From an uncultured Ignavibacteria bacterium (GTDB lineage: Bacteria; Bacteroidota; Ignavibacteria; Ch128b), in the NCBI GenBank assembly GCA_937944105.1, contig CALDZP010000034.1:38262-102261 (forward strand): 64,000 nt of DNA. The letters are read 5' to 3'. The notes under the pieces were generated by a model. The model was not told the origin of the DNA. It did no database searches and saw only the letters and a program-made list of their open reading frames with translations. Shown piece after piece: positions 3,547 through 58,948 of the stretch; position 1 is the stretch's first letter, and each line of letters starts with the position of its first letter. A program made the position numbers and the translations under genes.

Positions 3547-3551
3547 AATTT

Positions 3552-8857: not shown

Positions 8858-9062
8858 ATTTTGTCCATTACTTTAATAAACAATTTATTGATTGTATTGT
8901 TAACTAACAATTTTTTGAAAAAAAGGTTTTAATTCAAGAAAAATTATTTTACTTTATCTTGTTTAAATAAAGAATTGCGTAATATTTCCGTGATAAATTT
9001 TTGCATTTTATTTTTAGATTAATCTCTTAATTTTGCATTCGAGAAAAATGTGAGTAGAGAAA

Positions 9063-9404: not shown

Positions 9405-10213
9405 TCAATCTTTGATTTTGAATATTTAAAGTACTCACTTCTTTTCAATTCGTAAAATATAATTGATGCTGAAATCGCTAAATTGAGTGATTCAGCAGAA
9501 CCAGATGAGGGTATACTAACAAAATCATCACACATTTTTTTAATTTCATTAGAGATACCTTTTGATTCATTTCCAAATATTAAAATTGTTCTTTCTTTTA
9601 ATTCAAATTTTGCAATGTTTTTACCTTTAGTGGTAGTTCCCAAAAGTTTATAACCAGTTTGTTTAGCTTTATTTAAAAAATCATTTAAATCGACTTCATC
9701 AAATATGTTAATATGAAAAATTGATCCCATTGAAGCTCTAACAACTTTAGGATTTGTAATTTCTACACTGGTTCTACTTATAACAATACAATCCAAACCA
9801 AACCAATCGGCAGATCTTATTATTGTACCAAGATTTCCAGGATCACTAATATTTTCAAACACAGGGATTATAATTGGTAGTTTTGTGAATATATTTTCTA
9901 ATTCATATTTTTTCTTCTCAACAAGAGCTGCGATACCACTGGGGGATGTTTCGTTTGTAATTTTACTAAATTCTTTTTCACTTAATTCAAAACAAATAAT
10001 TTTCTTTGAGGCAAAATTATTTTTTAATTTATCAATGAGTTGAAGACCCTTGTTTGTAGCATAAATTTCTTTTGTTTCCCAATCGGAATTTAAAGCTTCA
10101 ATTAAAAGTTTTTCCGATTCTATTAAAAAATGATTACTTTCCTGTCGGTATTTTTTTTGTTTAAGTTTTGATATTTCTTTGAGGTGATTCGAGCTTATTT
10201 TTCTAATTATCAT
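9401..10213 (-). CDS. TrmH/SpoU-family RNA 2'-O-methyltransferase
   Basis: 'FENISDPGNLGTIIRSADWFG' and 'GSAESLNLAISASIIFYEL' SpoU motifs. Confidence 0.8.
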   Translation of the reverse strand: MIIRKISSNHLKEISKLKQKKYRQESNHFLIESEKLLIEALNSDWETKEIYATNKGLQLIDKLKNNFASKKIICFELSEKEFSKITNETSPSGIAALVEKKKYELENIFTKLPIIIPVFENISDPGNLGTIIRSADWFGLDCIVISRTSVEITNPKVVRASMGSIFHINIFDEVDLNDFLNKAKQTGYKLLGTTTKGKNIAKFELKERTILIFGNESKGISNEIKKMCDDFVSIPSSGSAESLNLAISASIIFYELKRSEYFKYSKSKID

Positions 10214-10248
10214 ATCTTTAAGAATTGGGGATTAGAATCTTATTATTT

Positions 10249-11751: not shown

Positions 11752-11753
11752 AT

Positions 11754-13532: not shown

Positions 13533-13866
13533 GGTTTGTGTGAAAATAAATTCATTTGAGAATTTATTTTTTTAATTTTCAGGATAAAAAAAGTTTTAAA
13601 TTGTTTCATCCATGAATAATAGTTTTTAACATTAAAACTGAAATCCTTTATTTCTTGATTTCATATTTTTTAATTCATTTCACTTTGAATTATATCGTTT
13701 ATAATTAAAAAATTTCAAAATTAAATACCCGAGAAATGTTTCTTATTGTTGTTAAGGATTAAAACCCAGGAGTCTTAAAATTTTGTTGTGTATTTTGAAA
13801 TAAGTTATAAAAAAAATTTTGATTACATGGTTTATTTAATTCTGAAAAATATTTAACTTATCTATT

Positions 13867-27032: not shown

Positions 27033-28850
27033 ATGAAAACATTTAATCAACTGCTGAAGGAAAAGGTATTAATATTTGACGGAGCTATGGGTACAAATCT
27101 TCAAGCTCAAAATCTTAGCTTTAATGATTTTGGTGGAAAGGAATATGAAGGTTGCAATGAATATTTAATCATTTCAAAACCTGACGCAGTAAAGAAAGTA
27201 CATCTGGATTTTCTTGAGGCTGGAGCTGATATAATTGAAACGAACACATTTGGTTCAAATGAAGTTGTGTTATCAGAATATAATTTACAAAATTTAGCAT
27301 ATGAGATCAGCTACAAGGCAGCAAAACTCGCAAAAGAACTGGCTTTAGATTTTTCATCGAATGAAAAACCAAGATTTGTTGCTGGTTCGATTGGTCCAGG
27401 GACAAAATTACCTTCATTAGGACACATATCATTTAAAGAACTCGAAAAATCATATTATCCTCAAATATCTGGGCTAGTTGATGGTGGCGCTGATATATTA
27501 TGTATCGAAACATGTCAGGATATGCTTCAAATTAAAGCTGCTCTCTCTGCTGCTATGAAAGTTTTTGATGAGAAAAAAACTAAACTACCAATTATTGTTT
27601 CAATTACAATTGAAACAACAGGAACAATGTTAATGGGAACTGATATTTCTGCAGCTTTAACAACTTTAGAACCTTATGAAATAATTGATGTTATAGGTAT
27701 GAACTGTGCCACTGGTCCAAAAGAGATGAGCGAAAATGTTCGTTACCTTTGTCAAAATTCGCCTAAACCTATTTTTGTGATGCCCAATGCAGGAATTCCA
27801 GAAAATGTTAATGGTAAAGCTTGCTATCATTTGAATCCTGATGAACTTGTTCACTGGTTGAGTCATTTTGTGAAAGATTTAGGTGTAAATATTGTTGGTG
27901 GCTGTTGTGGGACCACAAAAGAACATATAAAAAAATTAGTCGAAAATTTGTCAAATCTTAAACCAGCAGAAAGAAATTGGAGTTACCAACCTTCTGTATC
28001 CAGTAATTTTATCAGTCAATCTCTAAGAGTTGATCCAGCGCCTGTTTTAGTTGGTGAAAGATGTAATGCAAACGGTTCTAAACAATTTCGTGATTATTTA
28101 TTGAAAGATGATTATGAGGGAATGCTTCAAGTTGCAAAAGATCAAATTAAAGAGGGCGCACATATGATTGATGTTTGTGTTGCTTATGTTGGACGAGATG
28201 AAAAAAAAGATATGATTGAATTTGTTAAAAGATTAAATACTCAAGTTGTACTTCCTATTATGATCGATTCCACAGAATATGAAGTAATCGAAGCTGCTCT
28301 GGAAAATTATGCTGGTAGATGTGTAATTAATTCAATTAATTTGGAAGATGGAGAAGAAAGAACTTCAAAGGTTTTACCACTTGCGAAAAAGTTTGGTGCA
28401 GCGGTTATATGCTTAACAATTGATGAAGAAGGAATGGCAAAAACTGCTGAAAAAAAACTGGCTATTGCCAAAAGAATAAGAGATATAGCAGTAAAAAGAT
28501 TCGGTCTAAGGGAATCTGATTTAATTTTTGATCCATTAACATTCACTCTTGGCAGTGGAGATGAGGAATTTCGTAAAAGTGCAATTGAAACCCTTGAAGC
28601 AATAAAATTGATTAAAAAAGAAATTCCAAATTCCTTTACGATTCTTGGAATTAGTAATGTATCATTTGGTTTGAATCCTAAAGCAAGGCATGCTCTTAAT
28701 TCAGTCTTTCTATATTATGCAGTGCAGGCTGGACTTGATCTGGCAATAGTTCATGCGAGTAAAATCATGCCTCTTAACAAAATTGATGATCGTGGTAAAA
28801 AACTTTGCGAGGAATTAATTTTTGATAAGAGAATTTTTGAATATTCTTAG
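27033..28850 (+). CDS. metH: Methionine synthase N-terminal half (homocysteine-binding plus pterin/methyl-THF-binding domains)
   Basis: 'LIFDGAMGT' Hcy S-methyltransferase start, 'GGCCG'; pterin-binding TIM barrel 'VGERCNANGSKQF...MIDVC'; 605 aa; ends where the B12-cap would begin. Confidence 0.8.
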   Translation: MKTFNQLLKEKVLIFDGAMGTNLQAQNLSFNDFGGKEYEGCNEYLIISKPDAVKKVHLDFLEAGADIIETNTFGSNEVVLSEYNLQNLAYEISYKAAKLAKELALDFSSNEKPRFVAGSIGPGTKLPSLGHISFKELEKSYYPQISGLVDGGADILCIETCQDMLQIKAALSAAMKVFDEKKTKLPIIVSITIETTGTMLMGTDISAALTTLEPYEIIDVIGMNCATGPKEMSENVRYLCQNSPKPIFVMPNAGIPENVNGKACYHLNPDELVHWLSHFVKDLGVNIVGGCCGTTKEHIKKLVENLSNLKPAERNWSYQPSVSSNFISQSLRVDPAPVLVGERCNANGSKQFRDYLLKDDYEGMLQVAKDQIKEGAHMIDVCVAYVGRDEKKDMIEFVKRLNTQVVLPIMIDSTEYEVIEAALENYAGRCVINSINLEDGEERTSKVLPLAKKFGAAVICLTIDEEGMAKTAEKKLAIAKRIRDIAVKRFGLRESDLIFDPLTFTLGSGDEEFRKSAIETLEAIKLIKKEIPNSFTILGISNVSFGLNPKARHALNSVFLYYAVQAGLDLAIVHASKIMPLNKIDDRGKKLCEELIFDKRIFEYS

Positions 28851-37476: not shown

Positions 37477-37658
37477 ATTTACGATTCTCCATTATTGTTT
37501 TGATTATAAATGAAATATATTAAAACTTTCTGTTGCTGGAGATGTAAAAATTTTGGAATGATAGCAGGAAAGAATGATATAATGATATGCAGAAAAAAGA
37601 TACAAATTAAAAATTTTTTTAATTCGATGAAGATAAAGACCCTCCATAATAAATTAAG

Positions 37659-37732
37659 TACCCCCGAGAGGATTCGAACCTCCGACACGCGGTTTAGGAA
37701 ACCGCTGCTCTATCCTACTGAGCTACGGGGGC
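37659..37732 (-). tRNA. tRNA-Arg (anticodon CCT)
   Basis: The reverse complement GCCCCCGTAGCTCAGTAGGATAGAGCAGCGGTTTCCTAAACCGCGTGTCGGAGGTTCGAATCCTCTCGGGGGTA folds as a cloverleaf with anticodon stem GCGGT/ACCGC, loop TTCCTAA and T-loop GGTTCGAATCC. Confidence 0.85.
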
Positions 37733-37848
37733 AATTTTTATTATTGCATAAGCAATTTAAAAATTTCAGTTTTTATATAAAATAAAACTAACTTTGGAAC
37801 CATTATTCTTAAAACGTTTGTTATTTGCGAAAAAAAGGATTCTGATTT

Positions 37849-40134
37849 ATGAGTAGAATATATACATTATTTTTAATTGTAATTGTTTTGACTATTAATA
37901 GTTATTCCCAAATTAACACAGGTGAAATAAGAGGAAAGGTAATTGAAGCAAATAATAAACTTCCTATTCCTTTTGCAAATGTAATAGTTCTCGGAACAAA
38001 CATTGGTGCTTCAACTGATTTGCAAGGTAATTTTATTATTAAAAATGTTCCTGTAGGAATCTATCAAGTAAAAGCTTCGGTCATTGGTTATAATTCAGTT
38101 GTTAAAAGTGATGTTATGGTTAAATCTAATAAGATAACAGAAGTTGATTTTGAATTAGTTCAAAAGGTAATTGAAATTGATAATGTTGTTGTAAGAGCAG
38201 ATTATTTTGAAAAAAATTATTTAGAACCTGTAAGCGTTAGAAAATTTTCTCAAGAAGAAGTTAGAAGAAGTCCTGGTGGTTTCGAAGATGTTATTCGTGC
38301 CTTGAGTGTTTTGCCAGGAATAGCACAAGCAGATGCAGGTAGAAATGATCTAATTGTTCGTGGCGGTGCTCCTTCTGAAAATCTTTATGTAGTTGATGGT
38401 TTTGAAATACCAAATATAAATCATTTTGGTACTCAAGGTTCAACTGGTGGACCGATCAGTTTTATTAATCTCGATTTTGTTAAAGATGTTAGTTTTTCAA
38501 CTGGAGGATTTCCTGTTATTTATGGTGATAAAGTCTCTTCAACCTTAAATATAAATCTTCGAGAAGGTAATAATAGAAAATTTAATGGGAGAGGAACTCT
38601 TTCAGCTACTTTGTTTGGTTTTGATTTTGAAGGACCTGTTGTAAATGATAAACTATCAATGATTTTCTCAGCAAGAAGAAGTTATCTCGATTTTATCTTT
38701 AAAGCTGCAGGTTTTTCTTTTGTCCCTGAGTATTATGATATTTTAACAAAAGCTGATTATAAAATTGACAATAAAAATTCTGTGGGTTTTTTATTCATTA
38801 ATGCTATTGATAATGTAAAGTTTTTTAATGATAGTCCTGAAAAGAGAGTAAATAATTCAAGAATTCTTGGAAGTGATCAATTGCAATACGTATCCGGATT
38901 GAAATATCGTCGGTTATTTAGAGATGGATATATGGATTTGAAATTATACCGTAATTTCACTAAATATAATACGAGGCAAAGTGATTCATTACAGAATCCA
39001 ATATTTAAAAATATATCACTGGAAGAAGAAAATAATCTTCAGCTTGATGTAGTACATAAATTCTTCAAAAATCTTGAAATGAATTTTGGTATATCTTCTA
39101 AATTTATAGAATTCGATGCAGATATTTTATTCCCGAGTTTTGTTACATCACTAAAAGATACTTTACCCGATTTGAATTTAAACAAAAGTGAAAATTACTT
39201 TAAAGGGGCAACATATATTAATTTAAATTATCGAACATCAAATAAAATAATAACTAATTTTGGTTTGCGATTGGATTATTTTGATGCCATAAATAAAAAA
39301 TTTTATCTAAGTCCAAGATTTTCTGCTTCATATATTTTAAACGAATTTTTCTTTTTAAATTTTAGTGCGGGAATTTACAGACAATTTCCATCATACATAT
39401 GGCTTGTAGCCTATGATCAAAATAAAGATCTTAAAGCAATTAATGTAAACCAATTTGTACTAGGATTAGATTATTTATGGAGAGAAGATGCACAAATAAA
39501 AATCGAAGGATTTGTAAAAAATTATACTGATTATCCTGCAAGCTTAATAAGGCCATATTTAGTCCTAGCTAATACTGGTGCCGGTTTTTCAGGAAGTGAT
39601 GATAATTTCACTTCATTTGGCCTGGATCCATTGGTAAGTAAAGGTAAAGGCTTATCTCGAGGAGTTGAATTATCTGTCCAGAAGAAAATTTCGGAAATTC
39701 CCTGTTATGGAATTTTTAGTTTAACTTATTCCAAGTCAGACTTTTATGCACTTGATGGAATTAAGAGAAATAGTAATTACGATCAAAACTGGATAATTAA
39801 TTTAAGTGGTGGTTATAGATTTAATATGTACTGGGAAATTAGCACAAGATTTAGATTTTCTTCTGGTAGACCTTACACACCTTTTGATGATAATGGTATC
39901 CAGTACATATCAGAGGTAAATTCAAGAAGATTGAAATCAACACATTCTCTTGACATTCGCGTTGATAGAAGATGGTTATTGAAAAACTGGACTCTTATTA
40001 CATATATTGATATTCAAAATATATATAACAGGAGAAATTTAACCGGCATAAGATATGATAGAATTAAAGGTACAGTAGATGAGACTGCTTCAATAGGAAT
40101 TTTACCTTCAATAGGTATATTAGCTGAATTTTAA
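37849..40134 (+). CDS. TonB-dependent-receptor-like outer membrane protein with CarboxypepD_reg domain
   Basis: Signal peptide, CarbopepD_reg N-terminal, plug-like region, long beta-rich body ending in aromatic F. Confidence 0.6.
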   Translation: MSRIYTLFLIVIVLTINSYSQINTGEIRGKVIEANNKLPIPFANVIVLGTNIGASTDLQGNFIIKNVPVGIYQVKASVIGYNSVVKSDVMVKSNKITEVDFELVQKVIEIDNVVVRADYFEKNYLEPVSVRKFSQEEVRRSPGGFEDVIRALSVLPGIAQADAGRNDLIVRGGAPSENLYVVDGFEIPNINHFGTQGSTGGPISFINLDFVKDVSFSTGGFPVIYGDKVSSTLNINLREGNNRKFNGRGTLSATLFGFDFEGPVVNDKLSMIFSARRSYLDFIFKAAGFSFVPEYYDILTKADYKIDNKNSVGFLFINAIDNVKFFNDSPEKRVNNSRILGSDQLQYVSGLKYRRLFRDGYMDLKLYRNFTKYNTRQSDSLQNPIFKNISLEEENNLQLDVVHKFFKNLEMNFGISSKFIEFDADILFPSFVTSLKDTLPDLNLNKSENYFKGATYINLNYRTSNKIITNFGLRLDYFDAINKKFYLSPRFSASYILNEFFFLNFSAGIYRQFPSYIWLVAYDQNKDLKAINVNQFVLGLDYLWREDAQIKIEGFVKNYTDYPASLIRPYLVLANTGAGFSGSDDNFTSFGLDPLVSKGKGLSRGVELSVQKKISEIPCYGIFSLTYSKSDFYALDGIKRNSNYDQNWIINLSGGYRFNMYWEISTRFRFSSGRPYTPFDDNGIQYISEVNSRRLKSTHSLDIRVDRRWLLKNWTLITYIDIQNIYNRRNLTGIRYDRIKGTVDETASIGILPSIGILAEF

Positions 40135-40162
40135 GAATTTTATTGGGAGGTGATTTAGCAAA

Positions 40163-41638
40163 ATGAAAAATGTTGCAATAATTGGCGCTGGACTTGGAGG
40201 ATTAGCTACTGCCTTAAGGTTATCTCAGAATGGTTTTTCTGTGAAAGTAATTGAAAAAAATAACAAAGCTGGTGGAAGACTTAATCAATTAAAATTAGAT
40301 GGATTTACTTTTGATGTTGGTCCATCTTTTATGAGTATGACTTATGAATTGGACGAATTATTTTTTTACATCAATGAAAAGAATCCATTAGTTCTTGAAC
40401 CACTTGATCCCTTATACAATGTTTTTTTTGAAGGTAGAAAAAAACCATTCAAATTATGGAAAGATCTTGATAAACTTCAAAATGAATTTGCTGATGTCGA
40501 AAAGAATCTTGTTGAAAAGTTAGAAAATTTTCTAAATAATGCAAAAGAATTCTTTCATGATACAGAGTACAGAGTAGTTAAGCAAAATTTTGAAAATAAA
40601 TTGGATTATATACTAAAATTAAGTAAAGTACCTAAAAAACATATTCCTTATCTTTTCAAAACTGTTTGGAGCGAAGTTTCAAAGCATTTTGAAAGTAATG
40701 AGCTAAGAGTAATTTTTTCTCTGGTTGCATTTTTTTTAGGATCAACGCCATTCAAAACCCCAGCTATTTATACATTATTAAATTATACAGAGATGAGACA
40801 CAATGGTTATTGGAGAATTTCTGGAGGAATGTATCGACTTGTTGAAGTTATTCTGAATATTCTAAGACAACGTAAAATTGAATTTATTTTTAATACAGAA
40901 ATAGTAGGATACAAAGCGAATAAAAATAGAGTTGATTATCTAATAGATCAGAATGGAAATCATCATTATGCAGATTTGTTTGTTATAAATTCCGATGCAG
41001 CATTTTTTAGAGGCAAAGTCTTAGGACGAAAGAAATATTCTGAAAAAAATCTTAACAGAATGGATTGGACAATGGCGCCATTCACAGTTTATTTAGGTGT
41101 AAAAGGTAAAATAGAACAGTTAGAATTACATAATTATTTTCTTGGAAATGATTTCCAATCATATGCAAATAAAATTTTTACTTCCACACACAGCCCCAAT
41201 AAACCTTACTACTATGTTAATGTTTTAAGTAAATCTGAACCTGATTCGGCGCCGCCAGATTGTGAAAATATTTTTATACTCTGTCCAGTTCCTGATTTGA
41301 GATTTAAAAGTGATTGGTCTGATACTCAAGAATTTGCAGATAACATCATTGAAGATTTATCACGAAGAATTGATTTTGACATCAAATCAAATCTTAAAGT
41401 TATGAGAATCTATAATCCGATTGATTGGCAAAATATGTTTAATTTATACAAAGGTTCCGGTTTGGGATTGGCTCATGGAATTAATCAAGTGGGTGCTTTT
41501 CGTCCAAGTAATAAAGATGAAGAGTTTAGTAATTTGTATTATGTTGGTGCTTCTACAATTCCAGGAACAGGTTTGCCAATGGTTATAATTAGCTCAAAAC
41601 TCGTAACCGAAAGGATTCTGAATGATTCAACTTTATGA
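40163..41638 (+). CDS. crtI: Phytoene desaturase (CrtI family)
   Basis: 'VAIIGAGLGGLATALRL...GGR' FAD dinucleotide fold; C-terminal CrtI signature 'GASTIPGTGLPMV'. Confidence 0.75.
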   Translation: MKNVAIIGAGLGGLATALRLSQNGFSVKVIEKNNKAGGRLNQLKLDGFTFDVGPSFMSMTYELDELFFYINEKNPLVLEPLDPLYNVFFEGRKKPFKLWKDLDKLQNEFADVEKNLVEKLENFLNNAKEFFHDTEYRVVKQNFENKLDYILKLSKVPKKHIPYLFKTVWSEVSKHFESNELRVIFSLVAFFLGSTPFKTPAIYTLLNYTEMRHNGYWRISGGMYRLVEVILNILRQRKIEFIFNTEIVGYKANKNRVDYLIDQNGNHHYADLFVINSDAAFFRGKVLGRKKYSEKNLNRMDWTMAPFTVYLGVKGKIEQLELHNYFLGNDFQSYANKIFTSTHSPNKPYYYVNVLSKSEPDSAPPDCENIFILCPVPDLRFKSDWSDTQEFADNIIEDLSRRIDFDIKSNLKVMRIYNPIDWQNMFNLYKGSGLGLAHGINQVGAFRPSNKDEEFSNLYYVGASTIPGTGLPMVIISSKLVTERILNDSTL

Positions 41639-42464
41639 AAAAGTAAGTTTCGATACCAGTAAATTAGTTACAACAAAGTACTCAACTTCTTTTAGTCTTG
41701 GTATATTAACTCTGGATAAAAAATTAAGGAAACATATTTACGCAATTTATGGTCTAGTTAGAATTGCTGATGAAATTGTTGATACTTTCCATCATCTTGA
41801 TAAAAAGAAATTGCTAGACGAACTGAAAAATGAAACTTATAAATCCATTAGTAATAGATTCTCGTCTAACTTAGTTCTTAATTCATTCCAGATAACAGTC
41901 AATGAATATAAGATACCCAAAGAATTAATTGATGCATTTTTCCATTCAATGGAGATGGATACATATAAAAATAATTTTAGTCGAGAAGATTATGATAAAT
42001 ATGTTTATGGATCAGCGGAAGTAGTTGGCTTAATGTGTCTTAAAATTTTTGTTGATGGCGATGAAGATAAGTATAAAGAACTAAGAGAGTATGCTCGAGC
42101 ACTTGGTTCAGCTTTTCAGAAAGTAAATTTTCTTAGAGATATTGGTAGTGATTTAAATGATCGTCATAGGATTTACATTCCTGAAGTGCCAGAAGTTAGT
42201 GAAATAACAAATGAAGAAAAACAAAAACTAGTTCAGGAAACCGAAAGAGAATTTAGTTTAGCTCTTGAAGGAATTAAAAGGTTACCCAATTCTGCAAAGT
42301 TGGGTGTCTATTCTACTTACTTGTATTACTTGGCTTTGCTAAGAAAAATCAAGAAAAAGCAATTAGACTACTTATTAAGTAGAAGAGTAAGAGTTAATAA
42401 TTTTCACAAAATTTTACTTTTACTAAAAGCTTTTTTACAGGTTAAGGTTTTAAAATTAATATGA
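41622..42464 (+). CDS. crtB: Phytoene synthase
   Basis: 'YAIYGLVRIADEIVD' and 'YVYGSAEVVGLM', 'RDIGSDL' squalene/phytoene synthase motifs. Confidence 0.8.
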   Translation: MIQLYEKVSFDTSKLVTTKYSTSFSLGILTLDKKLRKHIYAIYGLVRIADEIVDTFHHLDKKKLLDELKNETYKSISNRFSSNLVLNSFQITVNEYKIPKELIDAFFHSMEMDTYKNNFSREDYDKYVYGSAEVVGLMCLKIFVDGDEDKYKELREYARALGSAFQKVNFLRDIGSDLNDRHRIYIPEVPEVSEITNEEKQKLVQETEREFSLALEGIKRLPNSAKLGVYSTYLYYLALLRKIKKKQLDYLLSRRVRVNNFHKILLLLKAFLQVKVLKLI

Positions 42465-42997
42465 TTTCAATTATTCTAATTTTTATTTTTCTTTTTAAGT
42501 CTTTTCCCGATTACAATTCCAGTGAAAAAGAATTGATCAGGCGTTTATTTTATTTTTCTATAGAGTCCAAAGATACTCTTAAAATTTTTGAAGATAAATT
42601 AAAAAAAATAGATAAAGAATTAGACTCCAACTTTAAAGATGCGTATTACGGAGCTTATCTAACTTTAGTAGCTAAACATTCAATAAATCCTTACACTAAG
42701 TACTTTAAATTAAAGGAAGGTTTAGAATTCTTAAATAAATCAATTAAAAATGATCCTGAAAAACTTGAGTTTAGATTCTTAAGATTATCTATACTAAATT
42801 ATGTGCCTTCTTTTTTAGGTTTTGACAATTTTTTTTATGAAGATTACAGACAAATAAAAAATCTAATAATAAAGAAAGATTATACCGAACTTGATAGAAA
42901 AATTCATAAAGGTATTCTTGAATTTTTGTTGCGAAGTCAAAAAATAAGTGAAGATGAAAAACATTTCTTAGGGAATATTTATAAAGACTTTAAATGA
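42461..42997 (+). CDS. Hypothetical protein embedded in carotenoid operon
   Basis: 178 aa; N-terminal hydrophobic segment; start and stop both overlap the flanking crt genes. Confidence 0.3.
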   Translation: MISIILIFIFLFKSFPDYNSSEKELIRRLFYFSIESKDTLKIFEDKLKKIDKELDSNFKDAYYGAYLTLVAKHSINPYTKYFKLKEGLEFLNKSIKNDPEKLEFRFLRLSILNYVPSFLGFDNFFYEDYRQIKNLIIKKDYTELDRKIHKGILEFLLRSQKISEDEKHFLGNIYKDFK

Positions 42998-43668
42998 CTG
43001 ATTATTCAATTATTCTTATCTCAACAATTATAATCCCGTTTATTTTTTCATTTGAGAAAAAAGTTAATTTTATTAGTAAAATAAAAACTGTTCTAAAGGT
43101 TATTTTTATTGTTTTTATTCCTTACATCATCTGGGATATTGTTTTTACAAATTACAGTGTTTGGGGATTTTCTGAGGAAAAAGTTTCCAGATTAAAGATT
43201 TTATCATTACCAATTGAAGAGCATTTATTTTTCTTTTGCATACCTTACACTTTAATTTTTATATATGAAGTTATTAATTTTTATTTAATTGATTCCAAGC
43301 TGAAATTTAATCACAATTTTGCTTTATTATTTGGTATTATCCTTCTAACAATTGCGATAATAACTTATCCAAAAGCATATACATCATTACAATTTTTAAT
43401 TACATCAATTTTGTCTTTTTATATTTGGCTAAAAAAGTTGGAGATATTTTTATCAAAAAATTTCTGGATTTTTATTATTGTCTCTTTCATTGGCTTTATT
43501 GTAATTAATTATTTCTTGACATCAATACCTATTGTTGTTTACAATAGTTCACAAATTCTTGGCATAAGAATTCTTACAATTCCAGTTGAGGATTTCTTTT
43601 ATCATTTCACTCTTACAACCGTTCTGATAATTTTGTATAAATCTTTTCATAGATTAAATGAAAAATAA
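42994..43668 (+). CDS. Lycopene cyclase domain protein (fused CrtYc/CrtYd type)
   Basis: 224 aa polytopic; two 'PxE(E/D)' motifs ('LPIEEHLFF', 'IPVEDFFYH') characteristic of the lycopene-cyclase domain. Confidence 0.6.
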   Translation: MTDYSIILISTIIIPFIFSFEKKVNFISKIKTVLKVIFIVFIPYIIWDIVFTNYSVWGFSEEKVSRLKILSLPIEEHLFFFCIPYTLIFIYEVINFYLIDSKLKFNHNFALLFGIILLTIAIITYPKAYTSLQFLITSILSFYIWLKKLEIFLSKNFWIFIIVSFIGFIVINYFLTSIPIVVYNSSQILGIRILTIPVEDFFYHFTLTTVLIILYKSFHRLNEK

Positions 43669-45133
43669 AATTATCATAATTGGTTCCGGATTTGGTGGAT
43701 TATCTGCTGCAATACATCTTGCTGCAAAAGGATATGAAGTTACTATCTTTGAAAAAAATAGTAAACTGGGTGGTAAAGCAGGTGAAATTGTTGAACAAGG
43801 TTTTCGTTTTGATACTGGACCGACTTTGTTGACTATGCCATTTGTTCTAGAAAATTTATTCAATGTAGGCAATTTTAATATTAATGATTTTATTTCGATC
43901 AAATCAAAAGATATTGTGACAAAATATTTTTTTAATGATGGTACAAATTTTTATCAATATTTTAATAGAGATAGACTTCTCTTAGAATTTGAAAAAGTTT
44001 GCCCAAATTCATCTGCTGAATTTATCAAGTTTATTAATTACTCAAAAAAAATTTATGATTTAACCGCCGAATTATTTTTATTTCAACCTTTTCTTGAAAT
44101 TAAAAATATTCTTCAACTGAAGAGCTTAAAGACATTATTTAAAATTAACCGAATTGATCCGTTTAGAACTGTTCATAATGCTAATAATGGTTTTTTTAAG
44201 GACAAAAAGTTTGTACAACTCTTTGATAGGTTTGCTACCTATAATGGTTCCAATCCATTCAAAGCACCAGCAACATTAAATATTATCCCATTTGTTGAAT
44301 TTGAATTTGGGGGTTACTTTGTTGAAGGAGGAATTTATAGAATTATTAATGCTCTTGAGAAGATAGCTCAAAAATTGGAAGTAAAAATTTATAAATCTTC
44401 AAATGTTGAGAAGATCTTGGTTAAAAATCAAAAGGTTGAAGGGATACTTATAGATGGAGAAAAATTTGACGCTCAAATTATAATTTCAAACTCCGATTTG
44501 TTCAATACCTACAAGTTATTGATTGGAGATGTGAAAAATTCTGAAGCTAATAAATATATAAAACAAGAGTTATCTACTTCGGCAATAATATTTTACTGGG
44601 GTGTAAGTACAAACTCTGAAAATTTAGAAATGGATAACATTCTTTTCTCAGAAGACTACCAGAAAGAATTTCATCAATTATTTGATCAGAAAGTTGTTCC
44701 AAACGATCCAACAATTCACATACATATATCGTCGAAAAAAAATTTTTTAGATGCTCCCAAAGGTTTTGAAAATTGGTATGTAATGATTAATGCACCTTCA
44801 ATTAATAAACAAAACTTTGATATTGAAGAAATAAGAGAAAGAGTTTTACAAAAGATCAAAAAAATGACTAAGATTGATTTAAGTAATAAAATTGTTTTTG
44901 AAAAATTTAAAACTCCATTAATGCTTGAAGAGGAAACATCAGGTTTATATGGCAGTCTTTATGGTCCCTCACACAACAGATTTTACTCAGCTTTTTTAAG
45001 ACAGAGAAATAAATCTTCTGTTATTGATGGTTTATATTTTTGTGGGGGGACTGTTCATCCTGGTGGGGGAATACCATTAGCAATTCTTTCGGGTAAAATT
45101 GTATCAGAAATTGTAGATAAGAACTTGAGATGA
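43658..45133 (+). CDS. CrtI-family carotenoid desaturase/ketolase paralog (CrtD- or CrtO-like)
   Basis: 'IIIIGSGFGGLSAAIHL...GGK' FAD fold; C-terminal 'GGTVHPGGGIPLA'. Confidence 0.65.
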   Translation: MKNKIIIIGSGFGGLSAAIHLAAKGYEVTIFEKNSKLGGKAGEIVEQGFRFDTGPTLLTMPFVLENLFNVGNFNINDFISIKSKDIVTKYFFNDGTNFYQYFNRDRLLLEFEKVCPNSSAEFIKFINYSKKIYDLTAELFLFQPFLEIKNILQLKSLKTLFKINRIDPFRTVHNANNGFFKDKKFVQLFDRFATYNGSNPFKAPATLNIIPFVEFEFGGYFVEGGIYRIINALEKIAQKLEVKIYKSSNVEKILVKNQKVEGILIDGEKFDAQIIISNSDLFNTYKLLIGDVKNSEANKYIKQELSTSAIIFYWGVSTNSENLEMDNILFSEDYQKEFHQLFDQKVVPNDPTIHIHISSKKNFLDAPKGFENWYVMINAPSINKQNFDIEEIRERVLQKIKKMTKIDLSNKIVFEKFKTPLMLEEETSGLYGSLYGPSHNRFYSAFLRQRNKSSVIDGLYFCGGTVHPGGGIPLAILSGKIVSEIVDKNLR

Positions 45134-45783
45134 TCGAAGCTAAACATAATGAGTTTTTTAGAAAAATTTTTAATGTTTATATCGATTGGCAACTGAAAAA
45201 ATATTTTAACAATTTCTATTTGATTGATGAATTGAATATTGAAGCTAAGGACGATTCATTATTAGTATTGCCTAATCATTTTTCATGGTGGGATGGTTTC
45301 TTCGTTGACTTGATTTACCGAAAATTATTTAGTGATTACAAATTATACATGATGGTGCTTGAAGAGACAATTAAAAAATTTTGGTTTTTCAATCATATTG
45401 GCGCTTTTACTATAAATCCAAAAAATCCAAAAGATATAAATAAATCTTTTAACTACGCTGCTAAGTTATTAAAAGGAACGAAAAATTTTGTTGTTATTTT
45501 TCCACAAGGGGAATTACACGCTTATTCGACTAAAGTAAACTTGAAAAAAGGAGTAATTGATTTGATTATTAACGGAAATTGTGAATCTAATCTACTTATG
45601 CTGGCAATGAAAATACTCTATTTAAATGAAAAAAAGCCTGATGTATTTTTTCATTGTAAATTTTCAAAAGCTTTTGATTACAGATTTGAAGGACAAAAAT
45701 TTGTTGATGATTTTAATGAAAATATCTTAAATCTCGAGACAAAAATTTCTGATCCAAATTATAAAAAAATTAAGTTATTATGA
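45130..45783 (+). CDS. LPLAT-family acyltransferase (CruD-like carotenoid glycoside acyltransferase candidate)
   Basis: 'PNHFSWWDG' (HxxxxD) and 'FPQGE' acyltransferase motifs; position in the operon. Confidence 0.55.
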   Translation: MIEAKHNEFFRKIFNVYIDWQLKKYFNNFYLIDELNIEAKDDSLLVLPNHFSWWDGFFVDLIYRKLFSDYKLYMMVLEETIKKFWFFNHIGAFTINPKNPKDINKSFNYAAKLLKGTKNFVVIFPQGELHAYSTKVNLKKGVIDLIINGNCESNLLMLAMKILYLNEKKPDVFFHCKFSKAFDYRFEGQKFVDDFNENILNLETKISDPNYKKIKLL

Positions 45784-46895
45784 TTGATTTTTTATTTTGT
45801 GCTCTTTTATCGTTAAACATTTTTTTTATATTAATTGTATTATTTAATTTTTTCTCGCCTTTAAATCTACAGGTTCCTAAGTCAACCAAGTTAAGCCTAG
45901 AAAAAAATATTTCTGTTTTAATTCCAGCAAGAAATGAAGAAGATAATATTAAAAATTGTCTTGAGGATGTTTTTAAGCAAGATCTTGAACATAAAGAAGT
46001 TATTTGTTTAGATGATGATTCTACAGATGACACCCTTAATGTTTTGTTGGATCTCAAAAAGAGATATGGAGAGTTAAGAATTATACAAGGTAAGGAGTTG
46101 CCTGATGGTTGGACAGGTAAAAATTGGGCTTGTTATCAACTGGCAGTAAATTCAACAGGAGATTTTTTGGTTTTTATTGATGCTGATGTTAGATTGAAAA
46201 AATTTGCAATAAAGTCAGCTATTTCATTGATGGAAAAATATGATATTAAAATGTTGTCAATATTTCCCACTCAAGTTATGAGAACAATTGGAGAATATCT
46301 GATAGTCCCATTGATGAATTGGTTTTTACTTACTTTTCTTCCTTTAATATTCGTTCGAAAAATTTCTCATTCTTCGTTTGTTGCTGCTAATGGCCAGTTT
46401 ATGATTTTTCGAAGAGATGCTTATTTCAAAATAGGAGGTCATCAGGCGGTTAAAAATAAAATCGTTGAAGATATGGAATTAGCCAGGTTAATGAAAAAAA
46501 ATAATTGTAGGATTATGACATTATTAGGAGGAGATTTAGTAACTGCAAGAATGTATAATAGCTTTTTAGATGGATTAAATGGTTTTTCAAAAAATTTTTT
46601 CTCAGGGTTCAATACCAGTTATTTTAAATTTTCATTCTTTCTGTTTTTCATTTTAATTGTTTTTTTAACACCGTTTTTGTTAGTGTTTATTGATGTAAAG
46701 TTTTTCATTGTAGTGGGATTGATTTTAATACAGAGAGTTTTGATTTCTAAAAAATCAAATCAGAACATTTTTATAAATCTGCTTTTATTACCTTTGCAAT
46801 TATTAATGGTCTTAGTTATTGGAATTAGATCAATGATTTTAACTAACAGAGGTGAATTAAATTGGAAAGGGAGAAATTTAAGTCACATAAAATAA
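45780..46895 (+). CDS. Family-2 glycosyltransferase (CruC-like carotenoid glycosyltransferase candidate)
   Basis: 'VLIPARNEEDNI', 'LDDDSTD' GT2 motifs; C-terminal TM helices. Confidence 0.65.
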   Translation: MIDFLFCALLSLNIFFILIVLFNFFSPLNLQVPKSTKLSLEKNISVLIPARNEEDNIKNCLEDVFKQDLEHKEVICLDDDSTDDTLNVLLDLKKRYGELRIIQGKELPDGWTGKNWACYQLAVNSTGDFLVFIDADVRLKKFAIKSAISLMEKYDIKMLSIFPTQVMRTIGEYLIVPLMNWFLLTFLPLIFVRKISHSSFVAANGQFMIFRRDAYFKIGGHQAVKNKIVEDMELARLMKKNNCRIMTLLGGDLVTARMYNSFLDGLNGFSKNFFSGFNTSYFKFSFFLFFILIVFLTPFLLVFIDVKFFIVVGLILIQRVLISKKSNQNIFINLLLLPLQLLMVLVIGIRSMILTNRGELNWKGRNLSHIK

Positions 46896-47503
46896 TTTTC
46901 TTAATATTGTTAATTTTATACTGTATTGGGATTGTACTTCATTTTATATCATCTTTTAATCATTATCTAAAATTCCTTAATCCAATTTTTTTAGTAACGG
47001 TTTTTTTAATTGTTACAGTTGATAAAAGTGTTGAAAAAAAATTTATAACTTGGGTAATTATGTCGTACTTAATTACATTGTCTATAGAAATACTTGGAGT
47101 TCATACTGGATTGATTTTTGGCAGTTACCAATATGGAAATAACCTTGGAGTAAAATTATCAGGGGTTCCGATAGTGATTGGATTAAATTGGATTACATTA
47201 CTCCTTGGGAGTATTGGATACGCTTCAATGGTAAAAACTTCTGTTTATTTAAAGAGTTTTATAAGTTCGATCTTAATGGTTGGATTTGATGGAATACTGG
47301 AATTAGTTGCATCAAAATTAAATTACTGGTTCTGGAGAGATGATATTATACCTTACCAGAATTTTATTGCCTGGTTTTTGATTTCATATATTCTGAGTTA
47401 TTTTTATTACGTATTGGTTCCTGGAAAAAACTTAATACTGGCAAAATATAATTATATCATTCAATTTCTCTTCTTTGTTATACTTTATATTTTTTTACAT
47501 TAA
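46862..47503 (+). CDS. Polytopic membrane protein, possible carotenoid-biosynthesis (CruF/Caroten_synth-like) protein
   Basis: 213 aa, 6-7 TM; last gene of the crt operon with overlapping start; family assignment from memory only. Confidence 0.35.
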   Translation: MEREKFKSHKIIFLILLILYCIGIVLHFISSFNHYLKFLNPIFLVTVFLIVTVDKSVEKKFITWVIMSYLITLSIEILGVHTGLIFGSYQYGNNLGVKLSGVPIVIGLNWITLLLGSIGYASMVKTSVYLKSFISSILMVGFDGILELVASKLNYWFWRDDIIPYQNFIAWFLISYILSYFYYVLVPGKNLILAKYNYIIQFLFFVILYIFLH

Positions 47504-48056
47504 TATTGTTTTTTGAAAAAACTCATAAAAACAACTTAATATTTTAAGAAATAAACACTTGTTTATTTCTAACCTTCGTTATTCTCGCCTTTATAGCCTT
47601 AACTTAATATTGAACATTCTTTTAAGTAAACTGATTTACAAATGCTAAATAAAGATATTTTTTAAATGTACAAAAGTTACAGCTAAGTAAAATAACTTAT
47701 GAATACCTTAAGTGTAATTTGACATTTATTTTTTATCCTTGAGTTTCTGTTACTTTCTCATAATGTATTTTATATTTATTGTAAGATTAAATTAACCACT
47801 GCTTAGATTCTTTCTTAATCAATTATCCGCGAAAAGAGAAACTCTAGATAATAGCATTTGGGTTATAATTTCCTTCAGCTGTCTAATATTAGCCAGTGCT
47901 TTTTAATAAAAACCTTCTTTTTTAGAGAAAAAAGAAGGCTTTACTTCTGGCACTTGGTTTGACTAATAAATTCTCAAATAGTTCATTTACAAAGATGAAT
48001 AAAAAAGTAATACTAAAATCACAAACATTTAATCACAAAACATAATGGAGGTTCAT

Positions 48057-48578
48057 ATGAAACGCTTAATTCTTTCACTAATTGTTCTTTCTTTTATTTC
48101 TTCTTTATCATATGCACAATCAAGTGCAAGTGCAACGGCAACCGTATTAGCTCAACTTAAGAAAGGACTTTCGGTTTCTCTCATTGGTGGAAATTTAAAT
48201 TTTGGTGAAATAATTCTGAATGGAAGTCCACAATCACCAACTATCGCTCCTTCTTCAGGTGCAAATTTCAGAGTAATCGGTCATCCAAATAAAAATATTA
48301 TGATTACTTTTAACAATGTGACTCTTGATAACAATGCTTGGGTAAGCAGCAATGGTGGAACAAATGGAACAATGGTATTTACTCCTGTTGTAAAGCATAC
48401 AGGATCGAACAGTTCTTATGATACCCCAACAGATGTTTTAAGCGGTAATTCTTATAATCTTGTAAATGTTTCAGGTGATGGTTATTTGTATTTATGGGTA
48501 GGTGGTTCACTCTCAATTGCTGCAAATCAACCTCATGGAGACTATACAGGAACATTTAGCATTACGGTTGCCTACTAA
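48057..48578 (+). CDS. Small secreted SCPU/CsuA-like (fimbrial-subunit-like) protein; stand-alone paralog of the 56.6-58.1 kb genes
   Basis: GGAGG 5 nt upstream of ATG 48057; signal peptide; shared motifs 'NFGEIIL', 'HTG.NS', 'LYLWVGGS', C-terminal 'GDYTGTFSITVAY'. Confidence 0.5.
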   Translation: MKRLILSLIVLSFISSLSYAQSSASATATVLAQLKKGLSVSLIGGNLNFGEIILNGSPQSPTIAPSSGANFRVIGHPNKNIMITFNNVTLDNNAWVSSNGGTNGTMVFTPVVKHTGSNSSYDTPTDVLSGNSYNLVNVSGDGYLYLWVGGSLSIAANQPHGDYTGTFSITVAY

Positions 48579-56619: not shown

Positions 56620-57141
56620 ATGATTAGATTGATTAAACATACATTAATGTTTTTCCTAATGTATAACTTATGCATTGGACAACAGTATAACATTTCTGCA
56701 ACTGGACAGGTTAATATGATAAAACCACTTTCAATTACTTCGATTAACAGCACAATAAATTTTGGGGAAATTATCTTAAGTGGTTCTAATTTCATAAAAA
56801 GTCTGAGTCCATCGGAAGGAGCAATTTTTAAGATTGAGGGTCATCCAAATCGAAATGTAATAATTTCTTTTAACCCGGTGACTCTTTCCAATTCAGAATG
56901 GGTCGCTCAAAATGGTGGAACACTTGGTACGTTAAATTTTGAAGCAAATGTTGTTCATACTGGAGCGAATTCGTCTTATCAATCTCCTGTTTCTGTACAA
57001 AATGGAAATTCATATCAGCTTGTAAATTCGTCTGGTATAGGCATTTTGTATTTATGGGTTGGTGGTTCAATAAATATTCAAGCTAATCAGCCAGTAGGGG
57101 ATTACCAGGGAATATTCAGTATAATGGTATCTTATCAATGA
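56620..57141 (+). CDS. SCPU/CsuA-like fimbrial-subunit-like secreted protein (paralog 1 of operon)
   Basis: Signal peptide; 'INFGEIILSGS', 'HTGANSSY', 'LYLWVGGS', C-terminal 'GDYQGIFSIMVSY'; about 45% identical to the 48057 paralog. Confidence 0.5.
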   Translation: MIRLIKHTLMFFLMYNLCIGQQYNISATGQVNMIKPLSITSINSTINFGEIILSGSNFIKSLSPSEGAIFKIEGHPNRNVIISFNPVTLSNSEWVAQNGGTLGTLNFEANVVHTGANSSYQSPVSVQNGNSYQLVNSSGIGILYLWVGGSINIQANQPVGDYQGIFSIMVSYQ

Positions 57142-57650
57142 AAAAATATATTTTAATGATTTTATTTTTTCTTTTTTCAGTTGATTGTTGGAGTCAGACT
57201 AATGAAACAGCGAGCCTTAATATAAGAGCTTCGCTAAAGAGAGGGATCAGTGTTCTTAATCAAAATAACATTTTAAGTTTTGGGGAAATTATTTTGTCAG
57301 GTTCATCTTTTGAATTAAATAAATCACCTCAAGAAGGATTAAGATTTAAGATTTTTTCAGATCCAGCAAAACCTGTTATGATAAGTTATAGTAATGTTGA
57401 GTTAAATTTATCAACTAATTCTGGGAATTTGACAAATGATAATTTACTTTTTGTTCCGAAGGTTTATCATACTGGTGGTAATTCTGATTTTATAGATCCA
57501 GTTGAAGTATTTTCTGGAATTTATTATCAACCACAAAATCAATCTGGTGAAGGTATTTTAAATTTATGGATTGGAGGAACACTTAAAATAAGTCAGTCAA
57601 ATATTCAAGGTGATTATTCAGGCACACTTATAATAACAATTGCATATTAA
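57138..57650 (+). CDS. SCPU/CsuA-like fimbrial-subunit-like secreted protein (paralog 2)
   Basis: Signal peptide; 'SFGEIILSGS', 'YHTGGNS', 'LNLWIGGT', C-terminal 'GDYSGTLIITIAY'; 4-nt overlap with the upstream gene. Confidence 0.5.
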   Translation: MKKYILMILFFLFSVDCWSQTNETASLNIRASLKRGISVLNQNNILSFGEIILSGSSFELNKSPQEGLRFKIFSDPAKPVMISYSNVELNLSTNSGNLTNDNLLFVPKVYHTGGNSDFIDPVEVFSGIYYQPQNQSGEGILNLWIGGTLKISQSNIQGDYSGTLIITIAY

Positions 57651-58116
57651 AATGATGAAAATTCGATTTTATATTTATGTTATAGTTTTTATAATTCTTT
57701 CATATAGTTGTGGCTTCGGTCAATTAATTATTCAAAAAATTAATGATTTAGATTTTGGTGATGTATTTATTGGTTATTCTGCCACGGTGAGTGATCTTTC
57801 ACCAAATGCTGCAAAATTTTTAGTTTATCAAAATTCACAACCACGAGTGGATTTACTTGTTAAATTTACTTTACCTTCTCAACTCACTAATGGGCAAAAT
57901 TCAGTCTCAATAGATTTTAATAATTTTGCTTCATGGGCAAGAGATGATGTTCAGACTGGCAGAATTTACTTTAATCCATATTCTCCTGTATTAATTAAAA
58001 ATGTACGTAGAAATAGGTATCATTATATCTGGTTGGGAGGGACAATTATGAGTTCTTCTGATATCTTACCTGGTTTATATACAGGAACAATCATTCTAAC
58101 TGTAGAGGTATTGTAG
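57640..58116 (+). CDS. Divergent SCPU-like small secreted protein (paralog 3; minor subunit or adaptor candidate)
   Basis: Signal peptide; 'DFGDVFIG', 'IWLGGT', C-terminal 'GLYTGTIILTVEVL'. Confidence 0.4.
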   Translation: MHIKMMKIRFYIYVIVFIILSYSCGFGQLIIQKINDLDFGDVFIGYSATVSDLSPNAAKFLVYQNSQPRVDLLVKFTLPSQLTNGQNSVSIDFNNFASWARDDVQTGRIYFNPYSPVLIKNVRRNRYHYIWLGGTIMSSSDILPGLYTGTIILTVEVL

Positions 58117-58117: not shown

Positions 58118-58948
58118 ATGAAAAGAAAAATAATTGTTTTAATTACTTTTTATTTTGTTAGTAATTTGTATTCTCAAATTTTAATTTCACCTTATATTGT
58201 TTACACAGATAATAAGAATAAAATAGGCAATTTTATCGTTCAAAATGAATCAGAAAATATCTATGAAATAAATGTAGGATTTCTTTTTGGTTATCCTGTA
58301 TCAGACTCAATAGGACAAATTTCAATGAAATATATTGAGAATGATTCATCTTATTCTTACTCAATAAATAATTTTATTAGAGCATTCCCTAAAAAATTTA
58401 TTCTTGAACCCAAGAAACGACAGATTGTTCGTTTAACAGTAAAAGCTCCAGATACACTTGCAAATGGAACTTACTGGACAAGAATAATTACCTCAGCGGT
58501 GCCTTATTCAGAACAGATAGATTCAATTTCGAGTGGCTTGACAGCAAAAATTAAATTTGTCTTGAATCAGGTAACGACTTGTATGTACCGAGTTAATCCA
58601 GCGGAAAGTGGACTAAAGGTTGAAAACCATGAAGTGAAATATGATTCGAACACAACTACTTTAGTATTAAATTTAAAAAGAGTTGGCAACTCACCTTTTA
58701 TTGGAAATCTTTTAATGAAAATCCTTGACGAAGAGGGTAATGTCATCAAAGAATTAATTGAGTATGTTCCAGTATATTTTGATCTTCAAAAAAGGTTTGT
58801 TTTTAATAATTCAGATTTCGAACCAAACAAAAGTTATATTATCCAAATAACCGCAAGTAATATCGAAAAAGAAGAAATTCCTGAAAGTACTTTAAAGGTA
58901 GTGGTAGTTCCTGAATTAAAGATCCCAATAGAAATTCCATTTAATTAA
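58118..58948 (+). CDS. Periplasmic fimbrial-chaperone-like (PapD/CsuC-like) protein
   Basis: Signal peptide; 'ISPYIVYTD...NFIVQNESENIYEINV' resembles the chaperone N-domain (RxIY...vxN) and 'FILEPKKRQIVRLTV' the PPlFrL block; about 270 aa, typical size. Confidence 0.45.
   Translation: MKRKIIVLITFYFVSNLYSQILISPYIVYTDNKNKIGNFIVQNESENIYEINVGFLFGYPVSDSIGQISMKYIENDSSYSYSINNFIRAFPKKFILEPKKRQIVRLTVKAPDTLANGTYWTRIITSAVPYSEQIDSISSGLTAKIKFVLNQVTTCMYRVNPAESGLKVENHEVKYDSNTTTLVLNLKRVGNSPFIGNLLMKILDEEGNVIKELIEYVPVYFDLQKRFVFNNSDFEPNKSYIIQITASNIEKEEIPESTLKVVVVPELKIPIEIPFN

Follow-up and report, generated by a model that had tools for sequence, protein, structure and literature searches.

A putative carotenoid glycoside ester operon in an uncultured Ignavibacteria bacterium includes a gene for X178, a predicted exported protein of an undescribed family

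The Ignavibacteria, which are not phototrophic, form the sister group of the green sulfur bacteria. A 64,000-nucleotide (nt) stretch of DNA from an uncultured member of this class (GenBank contig CALDZP010000034.1, positions 38,262 to 102,261; referred to here as the window, whose own coordinates are used throughout) contains a set of carotenoid biosynthesis (crt) genes at 40163-47503 that probably constitutes a single operon of eight translationally coupled genes, with a fatty-acid ester of a monocyclic carotenoid glycoside as its product. A gene for a TonB-dependent receptor-type outer membrane protein (OMP) lies directly upstream, and the third gene of the set encodes a 178-amino-acid (aa) protein, designated X178, which an earlier sequence-only reading of this DNA had passed over and which is the one really undescribed part of the operon. 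A well-described pathway is available from the same class: Ignavibacterium album produces 1'-OH-torulene and derivatives as well as deoxyflexixanthin, and its elution profiles point to glycosides and to fatty-acyl esters of these (Liu et al. 2012, PMC3362086). Its gene set matches the window cluster in content, and its pigments match the product predicted here (PMC3362086); as both were published in 2012, the sequence-only reading had overestimated the novelty of the pathway. However, I. album possesses crtW and makes deoxyflexixanthin, whereas the window contains no ketolase; the I. album paper mentions no X178-type gene (PMC3362086), and the I. album ortholog of the receptor gene is found at an unrelated locus.

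Three further systems invite comparison. Rhodothermus marinus makes gamma-carotenoid acyl glucosides by means of CruF, CruC and CruD, and this species and Salinibacter ruber (salinixanthin) share with the route predicted for the window CrtB, CrtI, a lycopene monocyclase step and the use of CruF, CruC and CruD on the psi-end of gamma-carotene (PMC7414004). Unlike the window, R. marinus has a cruF-crtB fusion, a CrtO ketolase, 2'-hydroxylation and two operons, and its 3',4'-desaturase was not identified, whereas the window has an enzyme that clearly groups with CrtD. The R. marinus "hypothetical gene 10" follows the cruF-crtB fusion, the same position as that of X178 (PMC7414004). In Chlorobaculum tepidum, the end product of CrtC, CruC and CruD is OH-gamma-carotene glucoside laurate (PMC6166724), so that, as predicted for the window, a 1'-hydroxy monocyclic carotenoid (OH-gamma-carotene or OH-chlorobactene) is glycosylated and then acylated; the green sulfur bacteria differ from the window in having a CrtC hydratase instead of CruF, CruA/CruB-type cyclases and scattered genes. 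Lastly, the myxol and saproxanthin clusters of Nonlabens spongiae and Flavobacterium sp. P99-3 follow the same crtI-crtB...crtD-cruF-cyclase logic towards a monocyclic 1'-hydroxy-3',4'-didehydro carotenoid, but these flavobacterial clusters have CrtZ and CrtA-OH hydroxylases, lack both a glycosyltransferase and an acyltransferase, and are not listed with an X178 gene (PMC11855829). The window cluster suggests that the glycoside-ester route of I. album, Rhodothermus and Salinibacter extends to another uncultured Ignavibacteria lineage, in a ketolase-free variant.

The open reading frame (ORF) listing and the gene junctions bore out the layout read from the sequence, with nine forward-strand ORFs between 37849 and 47503, overlapping starts and stops, and the OMP gene separated from crtI by a 28-nt gap, which contains a GGGAGG Shine-Dalgarno sequence. 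The receptor gene is followed by crtI, crtB, X178, a fused crtYcd, crtD, an LPLAT-family acyltransferase gene (CruD-like), a GT2 glycosyltransferase gene (CruC-like) and cruF. Successive members of the eight-gene set overlap by 17, 4, 4, 11, 4, 4 and 34 nt, and it is because of these start/stop overlaps that the crt genes are regarded as linked in one operon. Only two ORFs were found on the opposite strand within 37849-47503; both are short (82 and 95 aa) and nested inside genes.

Domains were assigned using Pfam and NCBIfam models, with scores read against the curated cut-offs, and the families previously proposed for crtI, crtB, crtYcd, LPLAT and GT2 were all recovered. The crtI product (phytoene desaturase; 40163-41638, + strand) matched TIGR02734 crtI_fam at 370.8 bits (cut-off, 238.1) as well as NAD_binding_8 and Amino_oxidase, and scored equally against Pantoea CrtI (4DGK, 191.9 bits) and the gamma-carotene desaturase 4REP (191.4 bits); in all related clusters crtI is the first gene 5' of crtB. 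The crtB product (putative phytoene synthase; 41622-42464, + strand) matched PF00494 SQS_PSY at 158.7 bits but fell below the cut-off of all CrtB, HpnC and HpnD equivalogs, the best being HpnD (104 against 278.6). It is 43 to 69% identical to the product of the gene 3' of crtI in approximately 55 related loci, and its assignment is based on this position. The fused heterodimer-type lycopene beta-cyclase CrtYcd (42994-43668, + strand) was recognized by PF18916 Lycopene_cyc in two stretches (100.8 bits) and by TIGR03462 (94.9 bits; cut-off, 39.4), the two stretches covering residues 3-91 and 127-218.

The second CrtI-family gene (43658-45133, + strand) shares 26% identity with its paralog in the operon and had been read as either CrtD or CrtO-like. 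The first of these options stood: NF042421 CrtD is its best model, and it scored 385.6 bits against the solved gamma-carotene desaturase 4REP compared with 191.6 bits against CrtI 4DGK. A CrtO identity was rejected, as NF045689 reached 54.8 bits (cut-off, 1000) over residues 4-306 only. By these scores the protein clearly falls in the CrtD clade and not with CrtO, and it is predicted to be a 1'-hydroxy-gamma-carotene 3',4'-desaturase acting on the psi-end. The LPLAT-family acyltransferase (45130-45783, + strand; PF01553, 40.9 bits; cut-off, 23) matched only generic acyltransferase models in NCBIfam. Its homologs (36 to 63% identity) always lie between crtD or crtYcd and the GT2-cruF pair, and all four of the homolog contexts examined were inside crt clusters. 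The GT2 glycosyltransferase (45780-46895, + strand; PF00535, 78.3 bits) was far under the cut-offs of the more specific models HpnB (136 against 379) and CruG (126 against 600), and identity with the cyanobacterial CruG was ruled out on that score. The last gene, cruF (46862-47503, + strand), has a TTG start and overlaps the GT2 gene by 34 nt, an overlap called identically in locus L001. Its product, described earlier only as a polytopic membrane protein for which a Caroten_synth/CruF check was suggested, matched PF04240 Caroten_synth at 95.3 bits (cut-off, 25) and is assigned to the CruF family of carotenoid 1',2'-hydratases, although it remained under the CruF equivalog cut-offs (61.9 against 154.7, 36 against 400 and 33 against 300).

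The same eight crt genes were found in the same order in loci L001, L010 and L094, with 43 to 81% protein identity, while L011 has the same order from the receptor gene up to crtD, where the contig ends. The nine-gene arrangement is far beyond chance, because it recurs in these four assemblies. L001 and L094 share with the window a fully syntenic block of approximately 20 kb, extending from genes for a histidine kinase, RuvB and fructose-1,6-bisphosphatase to those for a DUF4402 protein, a methyltransferase and DnaA. In more distant clusters the genes occur without the surrounding context of the window. L093 reads crtI-crtB-X178-crtYcd-crtD-acyltransferase-GT2-cruF-crtW, L092 has the same order minus crtD and with a crtW fragment, Pedobacter cryophilus has crtD-acyltransferase-GT2-cruF-lytB-crtW, and L015 has crtD-acyltransferase-GT2-cruF-crtI-crtB-X178...crtYcd. 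The gene for CruF adjoins crtD in L005 and follows a crtD-acyltransferase-GT2 run in L015, L091 and L093. The acyltransferase-GT2-cruF trio is retained in L001, L010, L015, L091, L092, L093 and L094, and crtD in all of these but L092.

The window has a G+C content of 29%, its close relatives are all Ignavibacteria, Ignavibacterium or Melioribacter, and type IX secretion sorting domains are encoded in the neighbourhood. A sequence identical to the window has been deposited under the name "Candidatus Omnitrophota/Omnitrophica bacterium" (L009, JAMWCA010000163.1; protein P0001), likely a mis-binned or mislabelled metagenome-assembled genome (MAG); the Omnitrophota label was rejected in view of the Ignavibacteria/Melioribacter relatives and the sorting domains, and the genome was assigned to the Ignavibacteriota. 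In L093, a 174-aa protein with a signal peptide and a C terminus ending in GYAW, resembling a small outer membrane beta-barrel, is encoded divergently from the crt operon (3355-3879, - strand).

From the gene identities (at family level), the gene order, its conservation and the fusions, all of which are directly observed, we infer the following reaction order and product. CrtB would join two molecules of geranylgeranyl diphosphate (GGPP) to give phytoene, CrtI would desaturate phytoene to lycopene, and the fused CrtYcd would close one end of lycopene to yield gamma-carotene. The open psi-end would then be hydrated by CruF to 1'-hydroxy-gamma-carotene, after which CrtD would add the 3',4' double bond to form 1'-hydroxytorulene, the CruC-like GT2 would glycosylate the 1'-OH, and the CruD-like LPLAT would esterify the sugar with a fatty acid. 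As both CruF and CrtD require an open psi-end, the cyclase would have to leave one end uncyclised. No polyprenyl synthase or crtE was seen in the window, and hence GGPP is presumably made elsewhere. Neither FA_desaturase (CrtW), FA_hydroxylase (CrtZ) nor CrtO was detected among the window ORFs of at least 100 aa, and tblastn of the 64-kb window with the CrtW sequences of L093 and L091 and the L092 CrtW fragment returned no match better than an E value of 1.8, the spacer after cruF included. Since no ketolase or ring hydroxylase is nearby, the predicted end product is a monocyclic, non-keto 1'-hydroxytorulene glycoside fatty-acid ester. This agrees with the earlier expectation of a glycosylated, acylated carotenoid paralleling the CruC/CruD/CruF pathways, which the combination of CruF, GT2 and LPLAT supports; the accompanying suggestion that the carotenoid might be keto did not hold up, given a second paralog that is CrtD and the lack of CrtW, CrtO and CrtZ in the 64 kb, while relatives carry crtW after cruF.

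Several points weigh against this product. The second CrtI paralog narrowly missed the NF042421 CrtD cut-off (448.8 bits against 500), a stop after one ring is not readable from the cyclase sequence, the CruC-like and CruD-like assignments come from gene context and published annotation in a relative and not from specific models, and another part of the genome could encode a ketolase. The last point leads to a different end product, a 4-keto carotenoid such as the deoxyflexixanthin-type glycoside ester of I. album, formed by a CrtW or CrtO outside the window. I. album indeed has crtW and makes deoxyflexixanthin (PMC3362086), and clusters L093 and L091 end in a gene for a CrtW-like FA_desaturase, with a fragment in L092. 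The window, however, lacks a ketolase and shows no remnant of one in the 540-nt spacer where relatives have crtW, the syntenic loci L001 and L094 run from cruF straight to the DUF4402 gene, and the second CrtI paralog belongs with CrtD and not CrtO; we therefore regard a keto product as unlikely, while keeping it in view. It is also conceivable that GT2 and LPLAT modify another lipid (hopanoid-like, glycolipid or phospholipid), leaving free 1'-hydroxytorulene as the product. The best specific NCBIfam match of GT2 is the hopene-associated HpnB (136 bits), and that of LPLAT is confined to generic acyltransferase models, but both scores are far under the cut-offs (379 and 103) and the two genes overlap their neighbours by 4 nt within the operon. 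Moreover, the trio with cruF occurs in seven loci, six of which also have crtD, in Ignavibacteria-type clusters as well as Pedobacter and a further Bacteroidota MAG, and in the I. album cluster both genes were annotated by the authors to whom the definition of CruC and CruD is due (PMC3362086). It is mainly because both genes travel with cruF across lineages that their enzymes are taken to act on the carotenoid, and a role confined to another lipid seems highly improbable.

X178 (42461-42997, + strand) is predicted to be an exported, tetratricopeptide repeat (TPR)-like protein and is a candidate pigment-handling accessory. That it belongs to no known family, as first read, was upheld: no Pfam or NCBIfam match was obtained at E<0.01, and a profile search of Protein Data Bank (PDB) sequences gave none at E<1. 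Eight X178 paralogs similarly had no family match at E<0.1 apart from noise. Nevertheless the family is very large, as a profile built from 26 homologs retrieved 3,470 representatives of 50%-identity clusters at E<=0.001, of which 2,639 were at E<=1e-10. The homologs retrieved with X178 and with the acyltransferase included no I. album protein. Invariant polar and aromatic residues lie in the motifs NPYTK, E-x-R-F-x-R-L-S, P-x-F-L-G-Y and E-D; K80, E103, R105, R108 and D128 are among the invariant positions. A short N-terminal hydrophobic segment is present in 168 of 176 members and is preceded by Lys or Arg in 147; many members have AXA-like cleavage sites and lack a lipobox Cys (a Cys lies nearby in 22 of the 176). 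The segment was called as a Sec signal peptide by inspection and not with a dedicated predictor. The AlphaFold2 model (predicted local distance difference test score [pLDDT], 87.5) has eight helices, and its predicted fold shows only a generic similarity to TPR-like proteins. Some bins carrying X178 are labelled Bifidobacteriaceae, Limnobacter or Gemmatimonadaceae, but have Bacteroidota-type gene content and look mislabelled.

To place X178 in context, 80 loci were taken from named genomes and MAGs; as they had been ranked by their likeness to the window protein, the set is biased towards the carotenoid type. In 51 of the 80 the gene lies directly 3' of crtB on the same strand, and 44 of these have CrtYcd within 10 kb; none of the five crtB-X178 loci lacking a cyclase within 10 kb that were noted has a CrtY-type cyclase nearby. 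A single ORF of approximately 386 aa combines CrtYcd with X178 in three loci (L021, L064 and L068, the last two nearly identical), in which CrtYcd (residues ~19-226) is followed by an Arg-preceded hydrophobic segment and then the X178 domain. One 273-aa protein (P0053) joins approximately 110 N-terminal CrtI residues, including the FAD-binding motif, to an X178 domain without a signal peptide; being a single sequence and probably a deletion or assembly artefact, it was not used as evidence. In three more loci X178 is at a contig edge with CrtYcd downstream, and in one (L038) the copy directly follows a gene for a CarbopepD_reg plus DUF5686 protein, with a lone CrtD-like gene approximately 8 kb away. 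The remaining 22 loci have no crt gene within approximately 10 kb. Four of them are inside flexirubin loci, identified by DarB (583 bits; cut-off, 550), DarG (177; 170), DarH (450; 300) and FlxY (713; 520), and four are near a gene for a CarbopepD_reg plus DUF5686 protein of approximately 800 aa (directly after it in L058, one gene away in L061 and L087, and a few genes away in L077). Thirteen are second or third Sphingobacterium copies between a DUF5362 membrane-protein gene and DUF2807/guaA, and the last is L062. The invariant residues are kept in all contexts, the flexirubin, DUF5686 and Sphingobacterium loci included. X178 marks a very large family at the core of Bacteroidota and Ignavibacteria carotenoid operons that has been omitted from published pathway schemes, and this family links carotenoid and flexirubin loci.

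The receptor gene (37849-40134, + strand) encodes 761 aa with a signal peptide, a CarboxypepD_reg-like domain (CarbopepD_reg_2, 69 bits), a Plug domain (37.6 bits; cut-off, 23.9), a barrel and a C-terminal Phe (...LAEF). PF00593 was not reported for it at E<0.01, and was recorded for most of the listed orthologs, which are 60 to 80% identical. A SusC/RagA assignment was rejected, as TIGR04056 gave 37.1 bits (cut-off, 368) over the N-terminal region only and the next gene is crtI and not SusD-like. The receptor is among the best conserved proteins of the region. Its orthologs in L001, L010, L011 and L094 (76 to 79% identity) adjoin crt genes, but three others have no crt neighbours: that of a Melioribacter MAG (L095, 73%) is followed by a GDSL lipase gene, that of Melioribacter sp. 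(L090, 69%) lies between unrelated genes, and that of I. album JCM 16511 (L089, 67%) is flanked by a hybrid kinase gene and a toxin-antitoxin pair. Conversely, the crt clusters of L092 and L093 begin with their own divergent intergenic regions and have no receptor gene. A receptor homolog was found within 10 kb of Bacteroidota crt clusters in five (L007, L041, L045, L056 and L085) of approximately 60 crt-carrying loci, and in L041 it is separated from crtI by a gene for a MerR/B12 regulator. An enrichment of receptor-crt pairs in the Bacteroidota was rejected, as five of ~60 is at or below the ~20% expected for 20-kb windows, itself a rough estimate for a phylum whose genomes each encode dozens of these receptors. 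From this distribution, the adjacency appears to be a trait of gene order in one lineage, passed on by descent and not the outcome of independent selection, because the four assemblies share the whole 20-kb order with the window.

The placement of pigments in the envelope of non-phototrophic Gram-negative bacteria is poorly understood, and the X178 family offers a concrete, genetically testable candidate for a part in it. Flexirubins are believed to be located in the outer membrane, and dedicated periplasmic carriers, LolA2 and LolB2, have been proposed to be encoded in their loci (PMC11885536). For X178 the closest comparison is with these and with the haemophore HusA of Porphyromonas gingivalis, small exported proteins of helical or carrier type that hold hydrophobic ligands. 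Based on gene context, predicted export and fold, we tentatively propose that X178 may be a periplasmic-side handler (carrier, dock or chaperone) of polyene pigments. In its fuller form, offered with the same caution, the proposal is that X178 founds a Sec-exported TPR-like family of the Bacteroidota and Ignavibacteria dedicated to membrane polyene pigments, whose members might bind carotenoids (flexirubins in the case of paralogs) at the periplasmic face and pass them from the synthesis machinery of the inner membrane to the outer membrane. In some lineages the handler would be tethered to CrtYcd, and CarbopepD_reg-domain OMPs (DUF5686 proteins or the receptor of this operon) could be the receivers. 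If this is true, X178 would be the first factor dedicated to carotenoid trafficking in a non-phototrophic bacterium. That the role is read from the neighbouring genes, from a signal peptide that is itself predicted and from a fold of generic type counts against it.

X178 could instead be an accessory or regulatory subunit of CrtYcd, governing mono- versus bicyclisation or enzyme stability, and the three CrtYcd-X178 fusion ORFs and the presence of CrtYcd within 10 kb in 44 of the 51 crtB-linked loci are in keeping with this. So is the Nonlabens cluster (MerR, crtI, crtB, crtZ, crtD, cruF, crtY and crtA-OH), which names no X178 gene and whose enzymes alone make myxol in Escherichia coli, for which reason X178 is not considered necessary for the chemistry (PMC11855829). 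However, the invariant residues are retained in flexirubin, DUF5686-adjoining and Sphingobacterium loci that have no cyclase, X178 is tied most tightly to crtB, five clusters contain X178 although a cyclase is missing from the surrounding 10 kb, and the signal peptide, which looks cleavable, would be expected of a soluble protein of the periplasm more than of a polytopic enzyme's subunit; a cyclase subunit is accordingly rather unlikely. What probability remains for X178 falls to membership in a light-stress regulon unrelated to pigment, or to something else. The receptor raises a parallel question, as it had been seen as heading the cluster and might be a working outer membrane partner that accepts or displays the pigment, or brings in a precursor or signal, in co-regulation with the crt genes. 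It lies on the same strand 28 nt from crtI, and neither a terminator hairpin in that gap nor a -7 promoter motif in the last 900 nt before crtI was found; its adjacency is kept in L001, L010, L011 and L094; and X178-family copies occur at or near CarbopepD_reg-domain, outer membrane-type (DUF5686) genes in five loci. Yet the four assemblies, sharing their whole 20-kb gene order, are not independent instances, the orthologs in two Melioribacter genomes and I. album JCM 16511 do without crt neighbours, the L092 and L093 clusters do without the receptor, and the five Bacteroidota loci do not exceed the ~20% estimate. A functional partnership is thus very doubtful, and the receptor is best read as a conserved housekeeping-type OMP of the Ignavibacteria, a physical neighbour and not part of the pathway. 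The co-transcription raised as a possibility in the earlier description is nonetheless plausible because of the short gap, the lack of a hairpin between the genes and a single nearby -7 motif at 37789, and would not imply shared function.

This candidate Bacteroidota-type -7 motif (TAnnTTTG, which we take to be the Bacteroidota promoter consensus) reads TAACTTTG at 37789-37796 on the + strand, 60 nt 5' of the receptor-gene ATG. Motifs of this type occur at 0.84 per kb in the window, and it is possible that TAACTTTG serves as the promoter of the receptor gene and, by read-through, of the crt genes. The next + strand motif 5' of crtI is at 39255, and 39256-40163 contains none. A sigma-70 promoter scan of the 29% GC window was uninformative, with 56 sites against 65 expected. 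The 5' flank of the receptor gene holds tRNA-Arg(CCT) on the - strand (37658-37732) and then the divergent fructose-1,6-bisphosphatase gene; a 91-aa ORF (37510-37785, + strand) opposing the tRNA has no family match and is almost certainly not a gene. At the other end, cruF is followed by an AT-rich spacer of 540 nt (47504-48044), in which no ORF, Rfam match or crtW remnant was found, and then by the DUF4402 gene, the methyltransferase gene and dnaA. The spacer contains a terminator-like hairpin (47913-47938, + strand) with an 11-bp stem, of which only three pairs are G-C, and an interrupted T tract, and this hairpin possibly marks the end of the transcript.

Regulators adjoin many of the related operons. 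A gene for a LitR/CarH-like MerR plus B12-binding regulator is often found 5' of Bacteroidota crtI-crtB-X178 operons (examples are L003/L012 at 7190-13578, L041 at 3156-4040 and L008 at 6901-7629), and the L003 operon, which is also preceded by an ECF sigma factor gene, has a photolyase gene inside it, suggesting light induction. No LitR/CarH-like regulator gene adjoins the window operon.

Further observations concern the rest of the window. The lone DUF4402 gene that follows cruF, which is also kept in L001 and L094, belongs to a group of + strand ORFs (48045-48578, 56620-57141, 57138-57650, 57640-58116, 58118-58948 and 58954-62532) in which one DUF4402 gene follows the crt operon and two are in tandem further on. 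After these come ORFs of 158, 276 and 1,192 aa without a Pfam match, and the group may serve to assemble a surface fibre or a pilus-type structure. At 1-142 on the - strand, a cobalamin riboswitch aptamer (RF00174, 79.3 bits) is cut by the edge of the window, and the gene that it would control lies outside. Methionine synthase appears to be split between two genes (27033-28850, + strand, and 11754-13532, - strand) that are approximately 13 kb apart on opposite strands, one encoding homocysteine S-methyltransferase and pterin-binding domains and the other B12-binding and activation domains.

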